Below are positions 2,982 through 18,444 of a stretch of 46,769 bases of DNA, in pieces. Every line of letters starts with the position of its first letter. Positions within the stretch are counted from its first letter, which is position 1. Made by a program: the position numbers and the translations under genes. The stretch spans positions 1-46,769 of the forward strand of contig JBBCAV010000089.1 of the NCBI GenBank assembly GCA_051382305.1, read 5' to 3'. The stretch is from Bdellovibrionota bacterium FG-2. Lineage in GTDB: Bacteria; Bdellovibrionota; UBA1018. The notes under the pieces were generated by a model. That model did not search any database. It was not told the DNA's origin and saw only the letters and a list, made by a program, of their open reading frames with translations.

Positions 2982-4229
2982 TCAATGACTGAGCGCCTGC
3001 TCCAAAAAGAGGAGCGTAGGATTCTCGACATAGCTAATGAACAGTTTCATAAACTCGGCGCCTACCGCGCCATCCACAACCCGATGATCCAGGGAGATCG
3101 AAAAATAGGTCCAATCCCTCACCACGACTTTTTCGCGCCCCCGAATCACCTTCACCACGGGCTTGCGAAAAATTTTATTGAAACCCAAAATCGCAACCTC
3201 AGGATAATTAATCACCGGTGTTGCAAACAATCCGCCAATGGAGCCCGCGTTCGTCAGTGTAATCGTGCCACCTTCAAAATCCGCAAGTGTGAGTTTCTTT
3301 GCCCGCGCACGCACCACAAGATCTTCGATCTCTTTGGCGATCGCCATAATACTTTTGTTTTCGACATCCTTAACTACGGGCGCCGTTAACCCGTCTTCGG
3401 TTTGTATCGAAAGCCCGATGTTATAGACGTGCTTCACCACGATCTCACCTGCTTTTTCATCTCCCCCTTTTTCATCTAAAGAAGCGTTCAGTAACGGATA
3501 CTTTTTCAAGGCTTCGACCATGGCCTTCATCAGAAAAGGCAAATAAGTAATTTTCACCCCTTGGCGCGCGCCGATCTCTTTAGCCGTGTTTCGCAGCTTC
3601 ACAAGCTCCGAGGCATCCGCTTCTTCAACATAAGTAAAATGGGCGGCATGATCTTTGGATTGCCGCATTTTCTCCGCTATTTTTTTGCGCAGTCCACGAA
3701 GCGGAATTCGCTCATCTTGCTTGAGGCCGGCCCTTGCCGACTTCACCACGCCCCCGCCCTTAGCCCTACGCTCGACATCTTCTCGCATCACGCGCCCGTG
3801 AGGACCCGTGGCGGGCACGCTCGCCAAATCGATGCCGAGTTCCCGCGCTAACCGACGAGTGGATGGAGCCGCCGGAACGCGTGCTTCCGGCTCGCGAATC
3901 GCAGGAGCCGTCACAGCGGCAGCAGGAGCTGATTTCTCACTCCTCTTTTCACTCCTCTTTTCACTCCTCTTTTCACTCCTCTGGTCACCACTTTTTGCCG
4001 CCCCTTCAAAACTCAACATCAGTTGTCCAACTTTGACGAGCGCACCTTCTTTGACGTGAATCTCTGCGACCGTTCCTTGAAAAGCCGACGGAATCTCAAC
4101 CGTCGCTTTATCCGTCATTACTTCGCACAAAGGCTGATCGTATTTCACTTGATCCCCGGGTTTCACCCGCCATTTAACGAGTTCACCTTCGTGAACTCCT
4201 TCGCCCATCTCAGGAAGTGTGAATCGCAT
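2982..4229 (-). CDS. 2-oxoacid dehydrogenase dihydrolipoamide acyltransferase (E2)
   Basis: ATG 4229 with GGAG RBS; lipoyl domain (EVMTDKA), E3-binding domain (AAPSTRRLARELGIDL), catalytic DHRVVDG. Confidence 0.95.
   Translation of the reverse strand: MRFTLPEMGEGVHEGELVKWRVKPGDQVKYDQPLCEVMTDKATVEIPSAFQGTVAEIHVKEGALVKVGQLMLSFEGAAKSGDQRSEKRSEKRSEKRSEKSAPAAAVTAPAIREPEARVPAAPSTRRLARELGIDLASVPATGPHGRVMREDVERRAKGGGVVKSARAGLKQDERIPLRGLRKKIAEKMRQSKDHAAHFTYVEEADASELVKLRNTAKEIGARQGVKITYLPFLMKAMVEALKKYPLLNASLDEKGGDEKAGEIVVKHVYNIGLSIQTEDGLTAPVVKDVENKSIMAIAKEIEDLVVRARAKKLTLADFEGGTITLTNAGSIGGLFATPVINYPEVAILGFNKIFRKPVVKVIRGREKVVVRDWTYFSISLDHRVVDGAVGAEFMKLFISYVENPTLLFLEQALSH
3935..3982 (-). repeat. 4 x 12-bp tandem repeat (AGAGGAGTGAAA on mRNA) encoding RSEK in the E2 linker
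   Basis: tcactcctct at 3937, 3949, 3961, 3973 (period 12). Confidence 0.95.
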
Positions 4230-5184
4230 TCGAAATCTCCTTAATCTTCTTGGCAACAAAAAACTCCGCAGCCTTATAACTCGATCGCACCAGTGGCCCT
4301 GAAGCCACATACGCGAAACCAAACCCCTCGGCCAAAACTCGCAACGCCTCAAACTCTGAGGGCGTATAAAATCGCTCCACCGGCAAATGCGTCATGGAAG
4401 GGCGCAGATATTGCCCCAAGGTCAAAATATCAACACCCACCCCCCGCAAGTCTGCAAAAGTAGCGCGAAGCTCCGCATCGCATTCGCCCAATCCCAACAT
4501 CACCGAACTTTTCGTCAAAAGTGAAATTCCCTTCCTAGCCGCAACCACCTTCGCAACGCGCAACGTCTCTAGTGACTGCGCATAGGCCGCGCGCGGATCG
4601 CGCACTCGGTATTGCAATCTCTCAACAGTCTCCACGTTATGGGCGTAAACGTCCAAATGAGATTCCACCACAGTTTCGATCGCGGATGGGTCGCCGCGAA
4701 AATCTGAAACCAGGGCCTCAACCAAAACAGCCGAATCGCGGATTTTAATCGCCTTGATGGTCTCCGCAAAATGCCCTGCGCCCCCGTCCGCCAAATCATC
4801 GCGATCCACCGAAGTGAGCACGACATATTTGAGCTTAAGTGCGACAATGCTTTCGGCGACACTCAGCGGCTCACTGGGATCCAACGCCGGAGGAATCCGT
4901 GCCGTCTTCACCGCACAGAACCGACACGCACGCGTGCAAATGTCGCCGCCCAACATAAAGGTGGCCGTTCCACTGGCCCAACACTCAGAAAGATTCGGAC
5001 AGTGAGCCTCTTCACACACCGTGTGCAGCTTCTGGCCCCGCAGCAGGCCTTTGATCTCCGCGTACTTCTCGCCACCTGGGGCACGGATCTTAAGCCACTC
5101 AGGTTTACGAGCCGCTAGTATCTTAGCTGCTTCGGATGGAGGAAGGGGACGCGCTCGTTCGGTAGGAGGTAGGGACATAGCCAT
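4210..5184 (-). CDS. lipA: Lipoyl synthase
   Basis: KPEWLK, CEEAHCPNLSEC, CTRACRFC, RSSY motifs. Start at 5184 or 5178; the ORF-track extension to 5265 runs through a terminator. Confidence 0.97.
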   Translation of the reverse strand: MAMSLPPTERARPLPPSEAAKILAARKPEWLKIRAPGGEKYAEIKGLLRGQKLHTVCEEAHCPNLSECWASGTATFMLGGDICTRACRFCAVKTARIPPALDPSEPLSVAESIVALKLKYVVLTSVDRDDLADGGAGHFAETIKAIKIRDSAVLVEALVSDFRGDPSAIETVVESHLDVYAHNVETVERLQYRVRDPRAAYAQSLETLRVAKVVAARKGISLLTKSSVMLGLGECDAELRATFADLRGVGVDILTLGQYLRPSMTHLPVERFYTPSEFEALRVLAEGFGFAYVASGPLVRSSYKAAEFFVAKKIKEISNAIHTS

Positions 5185-5207
5185 CTTATAGATGAAGTGC
5201 GGGGAAT

Positions 5208-5238
5208 AAAAAAGCCCCCAGGACGATTCCTGGGGGCT
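5208..5238 (-). terminator. Intrinsic terminator of candidate sRNA 1
   Basis: 11-bp perfect stem AGCCCCCAGGA/TCCTGGGGGCT, 4-nt loop, U6 tract on minus strand. Confidence 0.85.
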
Positions 5239-5276
5239 GAGAGAGAGGAGTAGTATGATCCGCATCTTGCGGTCGA
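5208..5276 (-). ncRNA. Candidate sigma54-dependent small RNA 1 (about 70 nt)
   Basis: -24/-12 promoter at 5287-5302, 5' hairpin CCGCA-AGA-UGCGG, single-stranded ACUACUCCUCUCUCUC, terminator. Confidence 0.6.
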
Positions 5277-5286
5277 GACTGCCTTG

Positions 5287-5302
5287 TGCATTTTGGGTGC
5301 CA
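5287..5302 (-). promoter_or_regulatory. sigma54 (-24/-12) promoter
   Basis: TGGCACCCAAAATGCA (GG-N10-GC). Confidence 0.7.
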
Positions 5303-5716
5303 GATCGAGGGACTGGCCTAATAAGAAATCGACACGAAGCGCACCTTTATTTTACTGCGCTTTGACATCACGGACTTAGGGAACAAAGAACGACGGAACC
5401 GCGTGAGTCGATTCCAGATTTGCTCCGCTAGGGCAAACGGTTTCATGACACGAGCCCCCGCTGCCGCTTCATTTTGCATTCATTCACCACCCAAGACCGC
5501 TCATTCTGCCGTTAATTGTCTGACAGGCGAAAAGCGCTTGGGCAGAGTCAAGATGCACCTCAACGGGAACGATTTCTATGTAAATTTTTGCGCTTCCGGC
5601 ATTGCACTTCCGAAACAGCGAAGTAATGGGCCGAAGGGTCGGGGGGGTAGGCCCTTAACTTCGTTGTTTGAGAAGTTGGGGCATTAGCACCTACGCAGCC
5701 GACCTTGCGGCAAGCC

Positions 5717-5756
5717 AAAAAAATCCCGCCCCCACCAACCATGGTGAAAGCGGGAT
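5717..5756 (-). terminator. Intrinsic terminator after 5820-6356 gene / candidate sRNA 2
   Basis: AUCCCGCUUUCACCA/UGGUGGGGGCGGGAU stem with three U-G pairs possible only on the minus strand, followed by U7. Confidence 0.85.
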
Positions 5757-5812
5757 CAAGAGAGAGAGGAGTAGTTAAGAGAGTGTGCCGGAACAATTCC
5801 GACACTTTTACG
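5717..5812 (-). ncRNA. Candidate 3'UTR-derived small RNA 2, sibling of sRNA 1
   Basis: Hairpin GUGUCGGAA-UUG-UUCCGGCAC, identical 16-nt ACUACUCCUCUCUCUC (5760-5775), terminator. Confidence 0.55.
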
Positions 5813-5819
5813 GACACTT

Positions 5820-6356
5820 TTAGAAACTAACGGGTAACCCCAAAGTCGCCATCCCTTCGCTATACATCCACTTGGCTTGATAGGTCGGGAAAAACTGATT
5901 CCAAGGCGCGCTGGAATTAAAAAGAGGACCCTTTTCATCGCTCCAAAAATCCGCACGAAAGGTCGGGTCAAACCCGGGGTTAAACGCTCCTGCTTGCCCC
6001 AAAGAGGGGTCATTAAAGCCTTGATAAAATGGAGCGTCCTTCACAAGCCCCGCCTGAGGCGAAGTGAGTCCAGAAAAAGGAGAACTACTCGTTCGGATCA
6101 ATGAAGCATCAATGATCTGAGATAGACTCGAAAAACCAGAAGCGATGTTCCCACCCAAAACGGCAGTTCCCGCGCCTTGATTAGCGAAACAAGTTGGACA
6201 GTTGAATTCAATGGCTGAAGCACTTCTGCCAAATCCCAGCCCGAGGCCTAAAGCGAGAGTGGCAAAATAAGTCGCCAAATACAGCGTCCTTTTTCTTTTC
6301 TTGAAATTTCTCACTTCTAAATTCCCCGTCTTTAAAGTTTCCATTAAATTTTCCAT
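5820..6356 (-). CDS. Secreted hypothetical protein with CxxC
   Basis: Basic N-region, hydrophobic stretch and ASA cleavage site, then FNCPTCF. Start moved to 6356 because a sigma54 promoter lies at 6405-6420. Confidence 0.7.
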   Translation of the reverse strand: MENLMETLKTGNLEVRNFKKRKRTLYLATYFATLALGLGLGFGRSASAIEFNCPTCFANQGAGTAVLGGNIASGFSSLSQIIDASLIRTSSSPFSGLTSPQAGLVKDAPFYQGFNDPSLGQAGAFNPGFDPTFRADFWSDEKGPLFNSSAPWNQFFPTYQAKWMYSEGMATLGLPVSF

Positions 6357-6404: not shown

Positions 6405-6420
6405 AGCAAGCCCTATGCCT
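6405..6420 (-). promoter_or_regulatory. sigma54 (-24/-12) promoter
   Basis: AGGCATAGGGCTTGCT (GG-N10-GC). Confidence 0.6.
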
Positions 6421-6697: not shown

Positions 6698-7120
6698 ATG
6701 GCAAAAAAAGCAAAAAAACCCGCTAAGAAAAAACCTGTAAAGAAAGCAGTAAAAAAAGCCGCTCCCAAAAAAGCTGCAAAGCCCGCAAAAAAACCAGCAA
6801 AAAAAACGGCCCCGAAAAAAGCTGCAAAGCCCGCTGTAAAAAAAGCGGCCCCCAAGAAACAGGCTCCTAAAAAAGTAGCAAAGCCCGCTGCAAAAAAAGC
6901 TGCTCCGAAAAAAGCATCCGCCCTGCCTGCTGCCGCTGTAGGCGCTGTTGCAGGTGGACTCGCCGGTGCTGCAATTGGATCTTCATTTTCTTCGCGCTAC
7001 GAGCACGAAGAGCACCACCATGAGCACGGCGAACACTGCAATCATGACCACAAAAATGATGACGACGAAGACGAACTCGTAAGCCCTGAAAAAGCTGACT
7101 CTGACGAGTCCGAAGAGTAA
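6698..7120 (+). CDS. Histone H1-like (Lys/Ala/Pro-rich) DNA-binding protein with His-rich and acidic tail
   Basis: KKAAPKK/KPAKK repeats; GGAG RBS; C-terminal HEEHHHEHGEHCNHDH and DDDEDE. Confidence 0.75.
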   Translation: MAKKAKKPAKKKPVKKAVKKAAPKKAAKPAKKPAKKTAPKKAAKPAVKKAAPKKQAPKKVAKPAAKKAAPKKASALPAAAVGAVAGGLAGAAIGSSFSSRYEHEEHHHEHGEHCNHDHKNDDDEDELVSPEKADSDESEE

Positions 7121-9390: not shown

Positions 9391-11674
9391 ATGGCCACTA
9401 ATTCTGACGACCCAGAACTAGCGAGAGCGCGCTTTTTTAAGGGATAGTCGAGTGCTGTCGCGCTCCTCACAATCCTGGCTGGCCTTCTGGTCATTTGGGG
9501 ATGGCTGTTCGATATCGCGATACTCAGAAGCGGCTTTTACGGCCTAGTGGCAATGAAATTCAATGCCGCAATTTGCTTTGTACTCACTGGAATATCCTTG
9601 TGGTGCATACAAAATGCACCTAACAGTTCGCGGCTTACTTGGATAATCAGAAGCTGTTCAGTCTTAGTAGCGCTTGCCGCTTTCACCACGGGGCTGCAGG
9701 ATGTATTCGGATTTGAATTGGGGATTGATAATCTGCTAATCATCGAAAGGTCCGGCGCCCTTTTGACAACACACCCGGGCCGAATGTCGATCGCGACTGC
9801 GATCTCCTTTGTCTTGCTCAACGCCACACTCGTGTGGTCAACCCTGCACTTCACGGCAGCTACGATTGAAATAATTTCCTATTTTTCACTCTCCGCATAT
9901 GTGCATGGCGCCAAATCACTCGTGATCTTAGGGAGTAGCGTCACGGCGATGGCTTTGCCCTCTGCTCTTATCTTCTTTTTTCTCGCCACGGCCCTTATTG
10001 CAGCATTGCCAGACCGCGGAGTTGTTTGGGTGATGTGTTTGAACACCAGTACGGCGCTCGCGCTTCGCAGAGTTTTTCCGATGGTCATGCTCTTACCGGT
10101 ATGCGTTGAGGCTTTTGAAGAAATCCTAGTCCTTTCAACGTCTGCGAACACACCACTGGCAGATGTCTTTTCATCGACTCTGATTATGGTTGCGTTTTCG
10201 ATAATGCCGAGACGGTGATCAAGCAACACCAGCGTCTGACGGCCCTCTTTGAAGGCATGCGTGATGCGGTTCTAATCGCAGATCCCCAAAGTGGAAAATT
10301 ACTCGATTGCAACAAAGCCGCCTGCGAGCTTTTGGGTAGAACAAAAAAAATATCATCGGTCTACATCAGCGCTAAATTCATCCCATAGAAGAACGCGCGG
10401 GAGAATTCACCCGGACCTTCAAAAAACATGACGACCGTGTTCATGAAGGAAAAATTCTGAGGCCCGACGGCAGCACCCGAGATGTTGCGATCCACCCGAG
10501 TCTTGTCGAAATTGACGGGAATACCGTGATCCAGGGGATATTCCGAGACGTCACCGAAAACAATAATGCCGAGAACGCGCTCCGGGCGAGTGAGAGCAAA
10601 TACCGCACACTTATTGAAGCGACAGACACGGGATTTTTGATACTTGATAATCAAGGCAGAGTGGTGGATGCAAATCCTGAGTATGTACGTCTAAGCGGCC
10701 ACCGTGACATCTGCGAAATCTTCGGCAGAAGTGTGGTAGAATGGACGGCGGAGTATGGAAAAGAAAAAAACGCGGCCGCGGTAGAAAAGTGCATGCTCGA
10801 CGGCTCGATCAGAAATTTCACAATCGACTATATCGATCAGCATGGCCATGTCACCCCCGTTGAGATCAATGCCACCGTCGATTATGAGGGAGACAGGCCT
10901 CGTATTATTTCGCTTTGTCGAGATATCACAAGTCGGGTAAGGCTAGAGTCCCAAGTCCAGCATTCGGCAAAGCTTGCCTCGATCGGAACCCTAGCGGCAG
11001 GGGTCTCCCACGAAATCAACAATCCCCTCACCGTCATTACCGGGTTTACCCGCCTGATCCGGGAGAGACTAACCCAGTCAAATAGGTTGGAAACAATATT
11101 CGAATTACTTTCGAAGCAGGAAAAAGCAGCTGCTCGGATTGCCAAAATTGTCGACGGACTTCGCACTTTCTCCCGTACTGATTCTGAACTCATCGAGTTT
11201 TTCGATATCAACGATGCAATCAAGGACACCCTGAGCATTTGCGAAGGCATTTACGAAAAAGAAGGCCTTTCAATTAAAACAACCTTCAGTACCGTTCAGC
11301 CTATCATCAAAGCCAATTCAGGAAAGTTTCAACAAGTAATCATGAATCTCCTCACCAATGCGAGAGACGCGCTATCAGAGCTGCCCACAGGGGGAACCAT
11401 TACCATAGAATCCGCTATTGTTGCCGAAAACGTCGTGATCTACATATCTGATAACGGCAAGGGGATCGCAAAAAAAGATCTCCCTCAGATTTTCGATCCT
11501 TTTTATACCACCAAAGCCCCAGGAAAAGAAACCGGCCTTGGGCTTTCAATTTCGCACGCTATCATTGATTCTTTCGGCGGGAAGATGACCGTTGAAAGTG
11601 AACTGGGAGTGGGGACGCGCTTCATCCTCACGCTTTCACTCGCTCGCCAGGAGGCGCAGAAAACCTCAGACTGA
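9391..11674 (+). pseudogene. Disrupted membrane PAS-PAS histidine kinase
   Basis: ATG 9391, in-frame TAG 9445; TM region to about 10200; frame break; PAS with frameshift at A8 (10343-10350) and TAA 10373; PAS-HisKA (HEINNPL)-HATPase 10526-11674 with G2 box GKETGLG instead of GKGTGLG. Confidence 0.85.
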
Positions 11675-12076
11675 CACGATTCTAAGTGGCGTGTGCGGGC
11701 CCACGTGCTCTGCAATGGCCAAAAAATCCTGGTCCGATGTTAGCAATTCCAAGTCGTGATCGACGGCGGTTTTGGCGATCATCCAATCTCCAAGGCGCGG
11801 AAGATTCACACCGCTCCGGGTACATTTTCGATAAATAGCAATCCAGGCGTCAAACCCGTCGTTTCTAAAATCAAAAAAGGCCATTTTCTCGAAGGAACTA
11901 GCTAGCTTTTTTCGCTCAAGATCAGAAGTAATACCACGAAGCACTTCGAAATATATCACATGACTAATGCAGACTTCTTCAAGAAGATTGTGAGCTAGAT
12001 TCTCCAATAGCAGGGTGTGCTTATTTTTTCTCTTCTTTAGTAAATCAATCCAGACACAGCTATCCACAAGAATCAT
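11666..12076 (-). CDS. vapC: PIN-domain VapC toxin
   Basis: MILVDSCVWID, FEVLRG, DWMIA, LLTSDQDF. Confidence 0.9.
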   Translation of the reverse strand: MILVDSCVWIDLLKKRKNKHTLLLENLAHNLLEEVCISHVIYFEVLRGITSDLERKKLASSFEKMAFFDFRNDGFDAWIAIYRKCTRSGVNLPRLGDWMIAKTAVDHDLELLTSDQDFLAIAEHVGPHTPLRIVSV

Positions 12077-12085
12077 AAAACGGGT

Positions 12086-12298
12086 TTATCGAGACGCTTT
12101 GTAGTCGTAATTGGCATCAAATTTCACCTGGCTCCGAACAATCGCCCGAAGAGCGTCGGAACTGGTCACCAGACGCATCAGCGCAAAATCAATCACGTCT
12201 TTAGTCGTAAAAAGGCCCGCTGCAGCTCCCACAACTTTCTTCGCTTTTCGCAACTTTTCGATATCCAACTCAACATTGGTGCGCTTTGTTTTCTTCAT
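12086..12298 (-). CDS. vapB: VapB-family antitoxin
   Basis: RTNVELD...TKDVIDFAL, 70 aa, directly upstream of vapC. Confidence 0.85.
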   Translation of the reverse strand: MKKTKRTNVELDIEKLRKAKKVVGAAAGLFTTKDVIDFALMRLVTSSDALRAIVRSQVKFDANYDYKASR

Positions 12299-12359: not shown

Positions 12360-12707
12360 CTACTTCTTCGCGTTTACCCCCGTGCCCCGCACTGACGCTC
12401 CTGAATGGCGATAGCCCTGCTTCGCGATCCGGCCCATCGGCCCGCGCAATTGCGGAAGCGAAGCAAGAGAGGGAAGTTGCTCTTTATAATTTTTCTCTTG
12501 CTCCGAAAGCCTTCGAATATCCATATCAAAATTTGGATTCGGTTCCTTTTGCGCATTAATATCGGACAGCTTTTGATAGATCGCAGTATCGTCCGTCACA
12601 TGACTTAAAGGGAACCGATCCGGAACCGCCGCCATGGCAAATGAGAGGGTCAACATTCCAATGGCTCCCGCCACCCCTGCTAGGGCCAGCTTATTATTGT
12701 GCTTCAT
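12360..12707 (-). CDS. Small secreted hypothetical protein
   Basis: Signal peptide (MKHNNKLALAGVAGAIGMLTLSFAMA); sigma54 promoter upstream. Confidence 0.7.
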   Translation of the reverse strand: MKHNNKLALAGVAGAIGMLTLSFAMAAVPDRFPLSHVTDDTAIYQKLSDINAQKEPNPNFDMDIRRLSEQEKNYKEQLPSLASLPQLRGPMGRIAKQGYRHSGASVRGTGVNAKK

Positions 12708-18428: not shown

Positions 18429-18444
18429 TGCATCACTCGTGCCA
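18429..18444 (-). promoter_or_regulatory. sigma54 (-24/-12) promoter
   Basis: TGGCACGAGTGATGCA. Confidence 0.7.

Follow-up and report, generated by a model that had tools for sequence, protein, structure and literature searches.

We identified a conserved small RNA gene within a 46,769-nucleotide stretch of the genome of Bdellovibrionota bacterium FG-2 (hereafter the window). As judged from sequence comparison it is a new small RNA (sRNA) family of a known kind, with several features in addition: two predicted sigma54 promoters that are both non-consensus, a short and a long form, a seed found across classes and a copy carried by a phage. Copy 1 is a putative sRNA gene of ~70 nt with a predicted sigma54 promoter, from which we infer its expression. 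Copy 2 carries the same C/U-rich seed in the 3′ untranslated region (3′ UTR) of an upstream gene. We consider it probable (roughly 0.6) that the RNA acts in trans by base-pairing and blocks the ribosome-binding sites of other mRNAs.

A C/U-rich seed present twice on the minus strand

A first-pass annotation of the window had pointed to a 16-mer occurring exactly twice. The two sites (Table 1) are the only ones in the window, where no other has two or fewer mismatches (0.03 expected by chance), and no further exact copy occurs in the 4.3-Mb genome (G000, 85 % complete). As had been proposed, folding of the minus strand gave the same layout for both, a 5′ hairpin, an unpaired seed and an intrinsic terminator with a U tract (z of -5.3 and -4.9); both terminators are also in a terminator listing, and the continuous 16-pair terminator stem of copy 2 forms on the minus strand only. 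A dispersed DNA repeat, an outcome named beforehand as fatal to the proposal, is not what we found: there are two exact copies, and a covariance model search of G000 at E ≤ 5 gave five matches, of which two were credible, which does not fit a REP/MITE-type repeat.

Table 1 Features of the locus (window coordinates)
Feature	Position	Strand	Description
sigma54 -24/-12 box, copy 1	5287..5302	minus	TGGCAC-N5-ATGCA; -12 element not TTGC; function putative
Copy 1, predicted ~70-nt small RNA	5207..5276	minus	fold and covariance model; start from sigma54 spacing (+/-2 nt)
5′ hairpin, copy 1	5257..5274 (core stem 5260-5272)	minus	loop AAGAU here; GGA-containing in most relatives
Unpaired stretch, copy 1	5238..5258	minus	CAU + shared 16-mer (5239-5254) + core ACUCCUCUCUC (5241-5251)
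Intrinsic terminator, copy 1	5207..5238	minus	11-pair stem, U tract
Copy 2, 3′ UTR of host gene	5715..5819	minus	hairpin 5785-5805, seed 5760-5775, terminator stem 5722-5757, U tract
Host gene, ~164-aa probably secreted protein, unnamed family	5820..6314	minus	signal-peptide-like N terminus, CxxC, conserved C-terminal motifs
sigma54 box of host gene	6405..6420	minus	AGGCAT-N5-TTGCT; CGGCAY in most relatives
lipA (lipoyl synthase), first of lipA-E2-E3-lipB cluster	4210..5178	minus	Pfam Radical_SAM, LIAS_N; E2 and LipB domains nearby
-10-like box TATAAG	5185..5190	minus	6 nt before lipA ATG at 5178

The unpaired stretch of copy 1 is the complement of a Shine-Dalgarno (SD) sequence followed by four nucleotides and AUG, and its seed has a predicted unpaired probability of 1.0. 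Copy 1 scored 78 bits with a covariance model built without the promoter (R1) and 88 bits with a second model (R2). The sigma54 boxes reported ahead of copy 1 and of the upstream gene are both present and both conserved in relatives, and G000 has rpoN and csrA. An Rfam scan of the window returned no match at gathering thresholds and nothing near a cut-off at relaxed ones.

The short RNA is conserved among relatives

The 14-mer core alone was found in 20 of 61 related genomes, counting 16 of the 36 from the same family, against three matches in 61 for a reversed-pattern control. Three features lying outside the query accompanied the family matches: a terminator, a hairpin with a CCGC/GCGG stem and, 47-50 nt upstream, a TGGCAY-N5-NTGCA box. 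With R1, 52 of 75 family genomes gave a match at E ≤ 0.05; 36 matches in 34 genomes fell below 1e-10, while some of the weak ones represent chance. At E ≤ 0.01 the model matched 47 of 96 class genomes, including 38 of 53 in the family as well as genomes in six further families of the order; a single match in 15 genomes of the group f10 was judged to be chance, and the other orders of the class had none (0/10). A pattern running from promoter to core matched 36 of the 96 class genomes and its control none. An independent metagenome set was queried with a 21-nt internal pattern that excludes the promoter, yielding 24 loci, 19 of them distinct; the sigma54 box was present in 18 of these 19, a terminator in all 17 testable copies, and lipA lay downstream at 12 of 15 testable loci. 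We set aside weak covariance model matches at L197, L216, L218-L222 and L226 as chance or unrelated terminators, and most weak R2 matches outside the order, apart from L364-366, L369-373, L375 and L378.

The four pairs of the 5′ hairpin all show two-sided changes (14 cells, reached in 0 of 500 shuffles and with lower values in slid controls), counted among kin that are not independent. The core read exactly ACUCCUCUCUC in 57 of 67 distinct loci, a figure inflated by selection of the loci on part of the core. A CAU lies within 10 nt ahead of the core in 54 of the 67, at a spacing of 4 nt in 38 of these 54. Hairpin loops contain GGA in 40 loci, ANGA in 24, this window's among them, and other sequences in three, and the terminator stems vary in sequence among relatives. 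The -12 element was never TTGC (0/55 loci; 0/18 in the metagenomes), whereas across the G000 genome 28 of 49 sites of this type have TTGC. The open reading frame (ORF) that would start antisense from the implied AUG ranges from 4 to 97 aa across 54 loci and is not conserved.

Sequence comparison thus finds promoter box, structure, seed and terminator conserved and a conserved ORF absent; lack of the seed and terminator in relatives, named beforehand as an outcome against the proposal, is thus not observed. The first-pass claim of an undescribed sRNA family is supported at the sequence level, in that the conserved gene combines a sigma54 box with an anti-SD core and a terminator and has no match in Rfam. 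In f10 the RNA was absent at five lipA loci, and in five genomes there were 12 core matches against 13 for the control, none with a terminator. The relatives carrying copy 1 belong to UBA1018 Bdellovibrionota, an uncultivated and probably predatory class that is sister to Bacteriovoracia and for which the name Bdellonasia has been proposed (PMC13200544).

Copy 2 ends the predicted transcript of a putative secreted-protein gene

Copy 2 sits 48 nt past the stop codon of its host ORF. It has no promoter of its own and shares its terminator with the host mRNA, as in 3′UTR-derived sRNAs of the CJnc230 type. The two elements had been put forward as sigma54-driven twin sRNAs, which holds for the shared seed and for the sigma54 box of copy 1 and does not hold for a sigma54 box belonging to copy 2. 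Since copy 2 would end a longer transcript, the term twin fits the seed and is a putative label for the molecules. The element is also present in a genome of the same genus (G001), and a seed with terminator occurs upstream of copy 1 at 14 of 49 loci with enough flank and at 6 of 17 metagenome loci.

The host gene had been annotated at 5820-6356; the gene itself stands, but its start is likelier at GTG 6314, which has the best SD and yields a signal-peptide-like N terminus, than at ATG 6356. The protein gave no Pfam match and no atlas match, and a single-sequence search returned only itself. A profile of it matched in 24 of 75 family genomes and in 80 representatives among 1.84e9 sequences of a large library. 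The homologous proteins encoded upstream of copy 1 are a diverged family whose members begin with a signal-peptide-like stretch and have a CxxC. A sigma54 box precedes 17 of 30 host genes, mostly CGGCAY-N5-TTGCT and with C in first position in 14 of the 17, and these boxes support the call of AGGCAT in the window.

Long forms in the genus g27 lack an ORF, measure about 200-240 nt and have a sigma54 box of their own, and copy 1 is relocated ahead of a SNF2-domain gene. There (L428, L192, L185, L188, L196, L193) a loop GAGUUGC is complementary to GCAACUC just before the seed. Modelled pairing of the two, likely a pseudoknot, is invariant and hence without covariation support. In relatives the host gene and the RNA mostly have a divergently transcribed Tad-domain (PF13400) gene next to them, as at L309:2-1597 and at numerous homologous loci, a place taken in the window by a gene for a histone-like protein of 140 aa (6698-7120, plus strand), which is Lys/Ala-rich with a His-/acid-rich tail, has no Pfam match and is transcribed away from the host gene.

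lipA is a neighbour

The first-pass annotation had tied the RNAs to the lipoate/2-oxoacid dehydrogenase operon, a tie that we do not uphold. A TATAAC/G box lies 6-12 nt before the lipA start at 17 of 53 lipA loci (strict script), so that lipA probably has, by its sequence, a near-leaderless transcript of its own. Given its own -10 box, the RNA missing at lipA in several genomes and, in several genera, copies located elsewhere, we regard lipA as no more than a neighbour. Elsewhere in the window we observed a short tandem repeat of SEKR units in the E2 linker (3935-3980), a PIN-domain gene behind a 70-aa ORF resembling a VapBC pair (11666-12298, minus) and two more genes with sigma54 boxes for small exported proteins (12360-12707 and near 18444, both minus). 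Five related elements near contig ends of G000 (L515-L519; contigs C232, C236, C244, C342 and C417) have a perfect SD, a basic ORF of 30-47 aa and upstream hairpins, and in sequence resemble a multi-copy cassette for a small protein or of the type I toxin-antitoxin kind.

The seed in other classes and in a phage

A pattern of seed plus U tract was run over 401 genomes and R2 over 151 genomes of the phylum. The seed directly before a terminator was found in two families of other classes, in 17 of 29 genomes of f18 and in two of three genomes of f24; its 14 nt are identical across classes. Nineteen f18 genomes matched the pattern, and the 17 terminator-like loci retrieved all fold. These lie mostly ahead of a Ser/Thr kinase gene (one confirmed by Pfam), and most lack a canonical sigma54 box; the two tested had no Rfam match. 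In f18 (L411-L425, L429, L430) we observed a multi-hairpin region with the same seed and terminator at its end, and in one genus four loci with TGGCAY-N4-TTGCA, one base short of sigma54 spacing.

Six genomes of f21 (L364, L365, L366, L370, L373, L375), a group that we guess may correspond to Bacteriovoracia with cultured members, have a separate conserved RNA of ~90 nt with a sigma54 box. It consists of a GU-repeat start, a hairpin with an invariant AAGGAU loop, UGUCUCUC and a terminator, and from sequence it is possibly homologous to copy 1. In f20, which we take to be Bdellovibrionaceae, two of 57 genomes matched the pattern, without a hairpin, and seed plus terminator was not seen. Outside Bdellovibrionota, many of the 80 retrieved 16-mer matches were without structure.

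The full copy-1 RNA was found at 55 bits in one of 72 viral contigs bearing the 15-nt seed, with the sigma54 box missing. This single case lies on the minus strand of a 157-kb viral contig (L592:7965-8035; also L546), between tail and homing-endonuclease genes and with a major head gene nearby. Of five viral matches to a pattern of the hairpin alone, four lacked the full RNA, as did two of the three to a pattern of the seed alone; these were rejected, and one further viral pattern search found nothing.

Comparison with known RNAs

Qrr1-5 of Vibrio are sigma54-driven siblings that need Hfq, and C/U-rich anti-SD seeds are familiar from RsaE/RoxS, RepG, NfeR1 and MmgR/SuhB. The analogies with Qrr, RsaE and RepG drawn at the outset are looser than that with Yfr1. 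In the window none of these RNAs had a match at its Rfam gathering threshold, Hfq was not found in G000, and a SuhB match scored 15 bits against a cut-off of 41.

Yfr1 is the closest known RNA. As described in PMC2190773, PMC6778093 and PMC6974561, Yfr1 (RF01116) and Yfr10 are likewise RNAs of 54-69 nt with a 5′ stem-loop, an unpaired stretch and a GC-rich terminator with a U tail, and, as in the present family, sibling RNAs have only the motif in common. Copy 1 has the Yfr1 layout of two stem-loops around an unpaired stretch of 16-20 nt, and the two cores, ACUCCUCACAC in Yfr1 and ACUCCUCUCUC here, agree in 9 of 11 bases. Yfr1 represses at ribosome-binding regions, with many envelope targets (PMC2190773, PMC6974561). 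It is, however, described as near-constitutive and usually located between guaB and trxA, whereas here we find a sigma54 box, lipA or Tad-like neighbours and another phylum, and the sibling ends an mRNA, unlike that of Yfr1. None of the 67 loci has the Yfr1 form ACUCCUCACAC, which selection on CUCCUCU excludes by design. The Rfam gathering score of Yfr1 (38 bits) was not reached, with no match in the window at E ≤ 5 and none in four homologue loci at E ≤ 10; the best score, 24.6 bits, came from an f24 locus (L426). On core, Rfam score and taxon and neighbours the family is therefore not a member of Yfr1, though it would work like it. Whether the likeness reflects common origin or convergence on the anti-SD sequence is an evolutionary question.

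The nearest model for copy 2 is CJnc230 (FlmE) of Campylobacter jejuni, an RpoN-dependent RNA with two stem-loops around an anti-SD stretch that is released by cleavage of an RpoN mRNA at its 3′ end (PMC11187230). It differs in following flgE and in being without a stand-alone sigma54 twin, and we saw no Rfam or sequence match between them. CsrB/RsmZ sponges share the GGA-loop hairpin (40 of 67 copies), sigma-factor-specific transcription and the presence of csrA. They contain many GGA motifs, whereas here there is a single hairpin whose loop holds no more than one GGA (that of the window copy has none), and the C/U seed dominates. APsRNA1-7 and merRNA of Bdellovibrio bacteriovorus, from the same phylum, are 98-655 nt long, some with FliA promoters, and were reported without homologues elsewhere (PMC3627812); we set them apart from this family by description. 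Theirs is the one account of non-coding RNAs in the phylum that our literature searches brought up. In the literature outside subscription papers we found no description of the RNA, and the main text of PMC11109978 contains no Bdellovibrionota term.

Candidate targets

At the start regions of 30 host genes, predicted pairing with the seed was stronger than at SD-matched starts of G000 (-13.1 vs -9.9 kcal/mol), and one in 100 flank-shuffled seeds did as well; these genes are kin, including two near-duplicate pairs, and the background comes from one genome. The host start in the window pairs weakly (-11.1). In G000, 24 genes with a sigma54 box pair better than the 2149 others (-13.4 vs -10.9; p 0.002 against an SD-matched background; equalled by none of 60 flank-shuffled seeds), in a test prompted by the same data on which it was run. 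Six other RNA-bearing genomes (31 genes, a subset of sites) gave a shift of -0.88 (0 of 100 shuffles; rank p 0.10), against -0.22 (34 of 100 shuffles) in five genomes with no match to the RNA (17 genes). With this rank p, and with strong pairing sites at 4 of 31 versus 8 of 70, the replication is weak.

No near-perfect conserved target was found, and the strongest matches across G000 outside the locus do not lie at the starts of long ORFs; a site on contig C369 was rejected because it precedes only a 21-aa ORF. In the order GAGAG is enriched 12-42 nt past sigma54 boxes, often right at the predicted start, and many genes with such boxes encode exported proteins. Counts of GAGAG against GGAAG after sigma54 boxes were 482:180 in the order (85 genomes) and 28:26 in other orders (10 genomes), with overlapping matches included and the RNA's own loop adding to GGAAG. 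The enrichment is no higher in genomes with the RNA (232:109) than in those without a covariance model match (278:97), and it is high in f10 (100:25), where we found no copy. Likewise, the density of AGAGGAGT-n-ATG does not follow presence of the RNA, and signal-peptide genes are negligibly enriched among the best-pairing starts (21.9 % vs 20.5 %). Overall the evidence on targets is mixed, with one test across genomes speaking against them.

One small gene for a secreted protein, with a sigma54 box, reaches a pairing energy of -17 in both G000 and G006, and its start region in G001 is similar; further orthologues were sought in metagenomes, and none could be confirmed. On contig C42 of G000 (L513:330-400) ACTACTCCTC comes immediately after a sigma54 box, the gene's ribosome site being its complement. 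From sequence, the C42 gene is a candidate target; start regions resembling it exist in G001 and G006. The best candidate is the neighbouring secreted-protein mRNA, followed by other sigma54-driven exported-protein mRNAs.

Proposed function and alternative explanations

We propose that sigma54 holoenzyme together with an activator would produce the ~70-nt transcript of copy 1, in which two hairpins would keep the C/U stretch unpaired. By pairing with purine-rich translation starts (GAGAG-AGGAG(U)-n-AUG) this stretch would keep ribosomes off several mRNAs, in the manner of Yfr1. In copy 2 this seed would close a longer sigma54 transcript that contains a secreted-protein ORF here and none in other lineages; copy 2 may act after processing or within the long RNA. 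We infer transcription, sigma54 dependence, base-pairing, repression, targets and copy 2 processing from predicted features. The trans-acting reading is drawn from the conserved seed, promoter and terminator, hairpin covariation, non-coding character, pairing at host starts and the Yfr1 layout. At the sequence level copy 1 has what is generally expected of a trans-acting anti-SD sRNA, namely a promoter, a terminator, an accessible anti-SD seed and no conserved ORF. Against ribosome blocking stand the lack of a near-perfect target, GAGAG and AGAGGAGT-n-ATG not tracking the RNA, the negligible signal-peptide enrichment, the weak pairing of the window's own host start, the weak replication of the sigma54-gene signal and the missing Hfq match in G000.

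An unlikely alternative is that the RNA works through CsrA, either as a one-site decoy bound at the 5′ loop or because CsrA brings the seed to GGA ribosome sites in place of Hfq. The loop GGA of most copies is retained through stem changes in divergent ones, the f21 loop is invariant, csrA is present in 93 of 96 class genomes and no Hfq match was obtained in G000. CsrA promotes sRNA-mRNA pairing in B. subtilis, but CsrB/C have 13-22 sites against a single one here (PMC6546359). Moreover, the 24 ANGA loops, the window's included, have no GGA, and genomes in which we did not find the RNA carry csrA just as well, which makes its co-occurrence uninformative. The CsrA proteins here also carry a C-terminal extension, typical of FliW-controlled CsrA, and the seed would be left unexplained. 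We also hold it rather unlikely that the seed serves to bind a protein or a second non-coding RNA, in a sponge pair like Yfr1/Yfr2, and does not repress mRNAs. Its 14 nt are identical across classes, yet we found no equally long mRNA complement that is conserved, and the length of the CU repeat varies; for Yfr1, too, this possibility has been discussed (PMC2190773), and its partner there is Yfr2 (PMC6778093). The CAU at SD-to-AUG spacing nonetheless fits translation starts, host starts pair better with the seed than with shuffled seeds and no partner RNA was seen.

It is quite improbable that the seed of copy 2 acts in cis, folding onto the 5′ end of its own transcript until processed, with copy 1 as a freed duplicate. 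Host starts do pair with the seed, and the consensus fold of five ORF-less g27 long forms pairs it with a 5′ GAGAG-GGAG. These g27 pairs, however, show no two-sided change, shuffles were beaten at p ≤ 0.08 by none of 17 f18 RNAs and by 6 of 22 f1 long forms, mostly from g27, and within the whole host mRNA of the window the seed is predicted to be 76 % unpaired. An insulator or terminator that shields lipA from read-through, its C/U motif sequestering a downstream ribosome site, would suit the frequency of lipA as next gene in the metagenome loci and the CT-rich insulation described within 25 bp of the SD at sigma54 promoters (10.1101/086108). We regard it as very improbable: the seed precedes the terminator and lies more than 60 nt from the start of lipA, a gene with a separate -10 box and without a recognizable SD, a dedicated promoter would be superfluous, and full copies occur before SNF2-domain, ssb-like and other genes and in a phage. 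Low complexity of CU repeats and the unstructured 16-mers outside the phylum could suggest chance or a dispersed repeat, and the plus strand offers an SD with ATG 5255 and a 36-aa ORF, as for the ribosome site of a small opposite-strand gene. Two copies in 4.3 Mb, fixed promoter spacing, covariation, terminators and the unconserved antisense ORF speak against this, and we take the conservation pattern to refute it.

Implications

The literature that we found has next to nothing on base-pairing regulation in Bdellovibrionota. Reporter tests in E. coli can be applied to the short RNA and its candidate targets even with hosts that are uncultured. A more far-reaching, speculative and in our view improbable interpretation is that of an ancient, Bdellovibrionota-wide and Hfq-free regulator, its seed perhaps related by descent to that of Yfr1, and with CsrA perhaps as its matchmaker. 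Made as a short sigma54 RNA and as a long form, mRNA-borne or ORF-less, from two differently non-consensus sigma54 promoters, it would time translation of the predators' exported proteins and would have been captured by a phage to manipulate this. The retention of the seed across several classes, together with the phage copy, suggests that it serves a central step of regulation in predators apparently devoid of Hfq.
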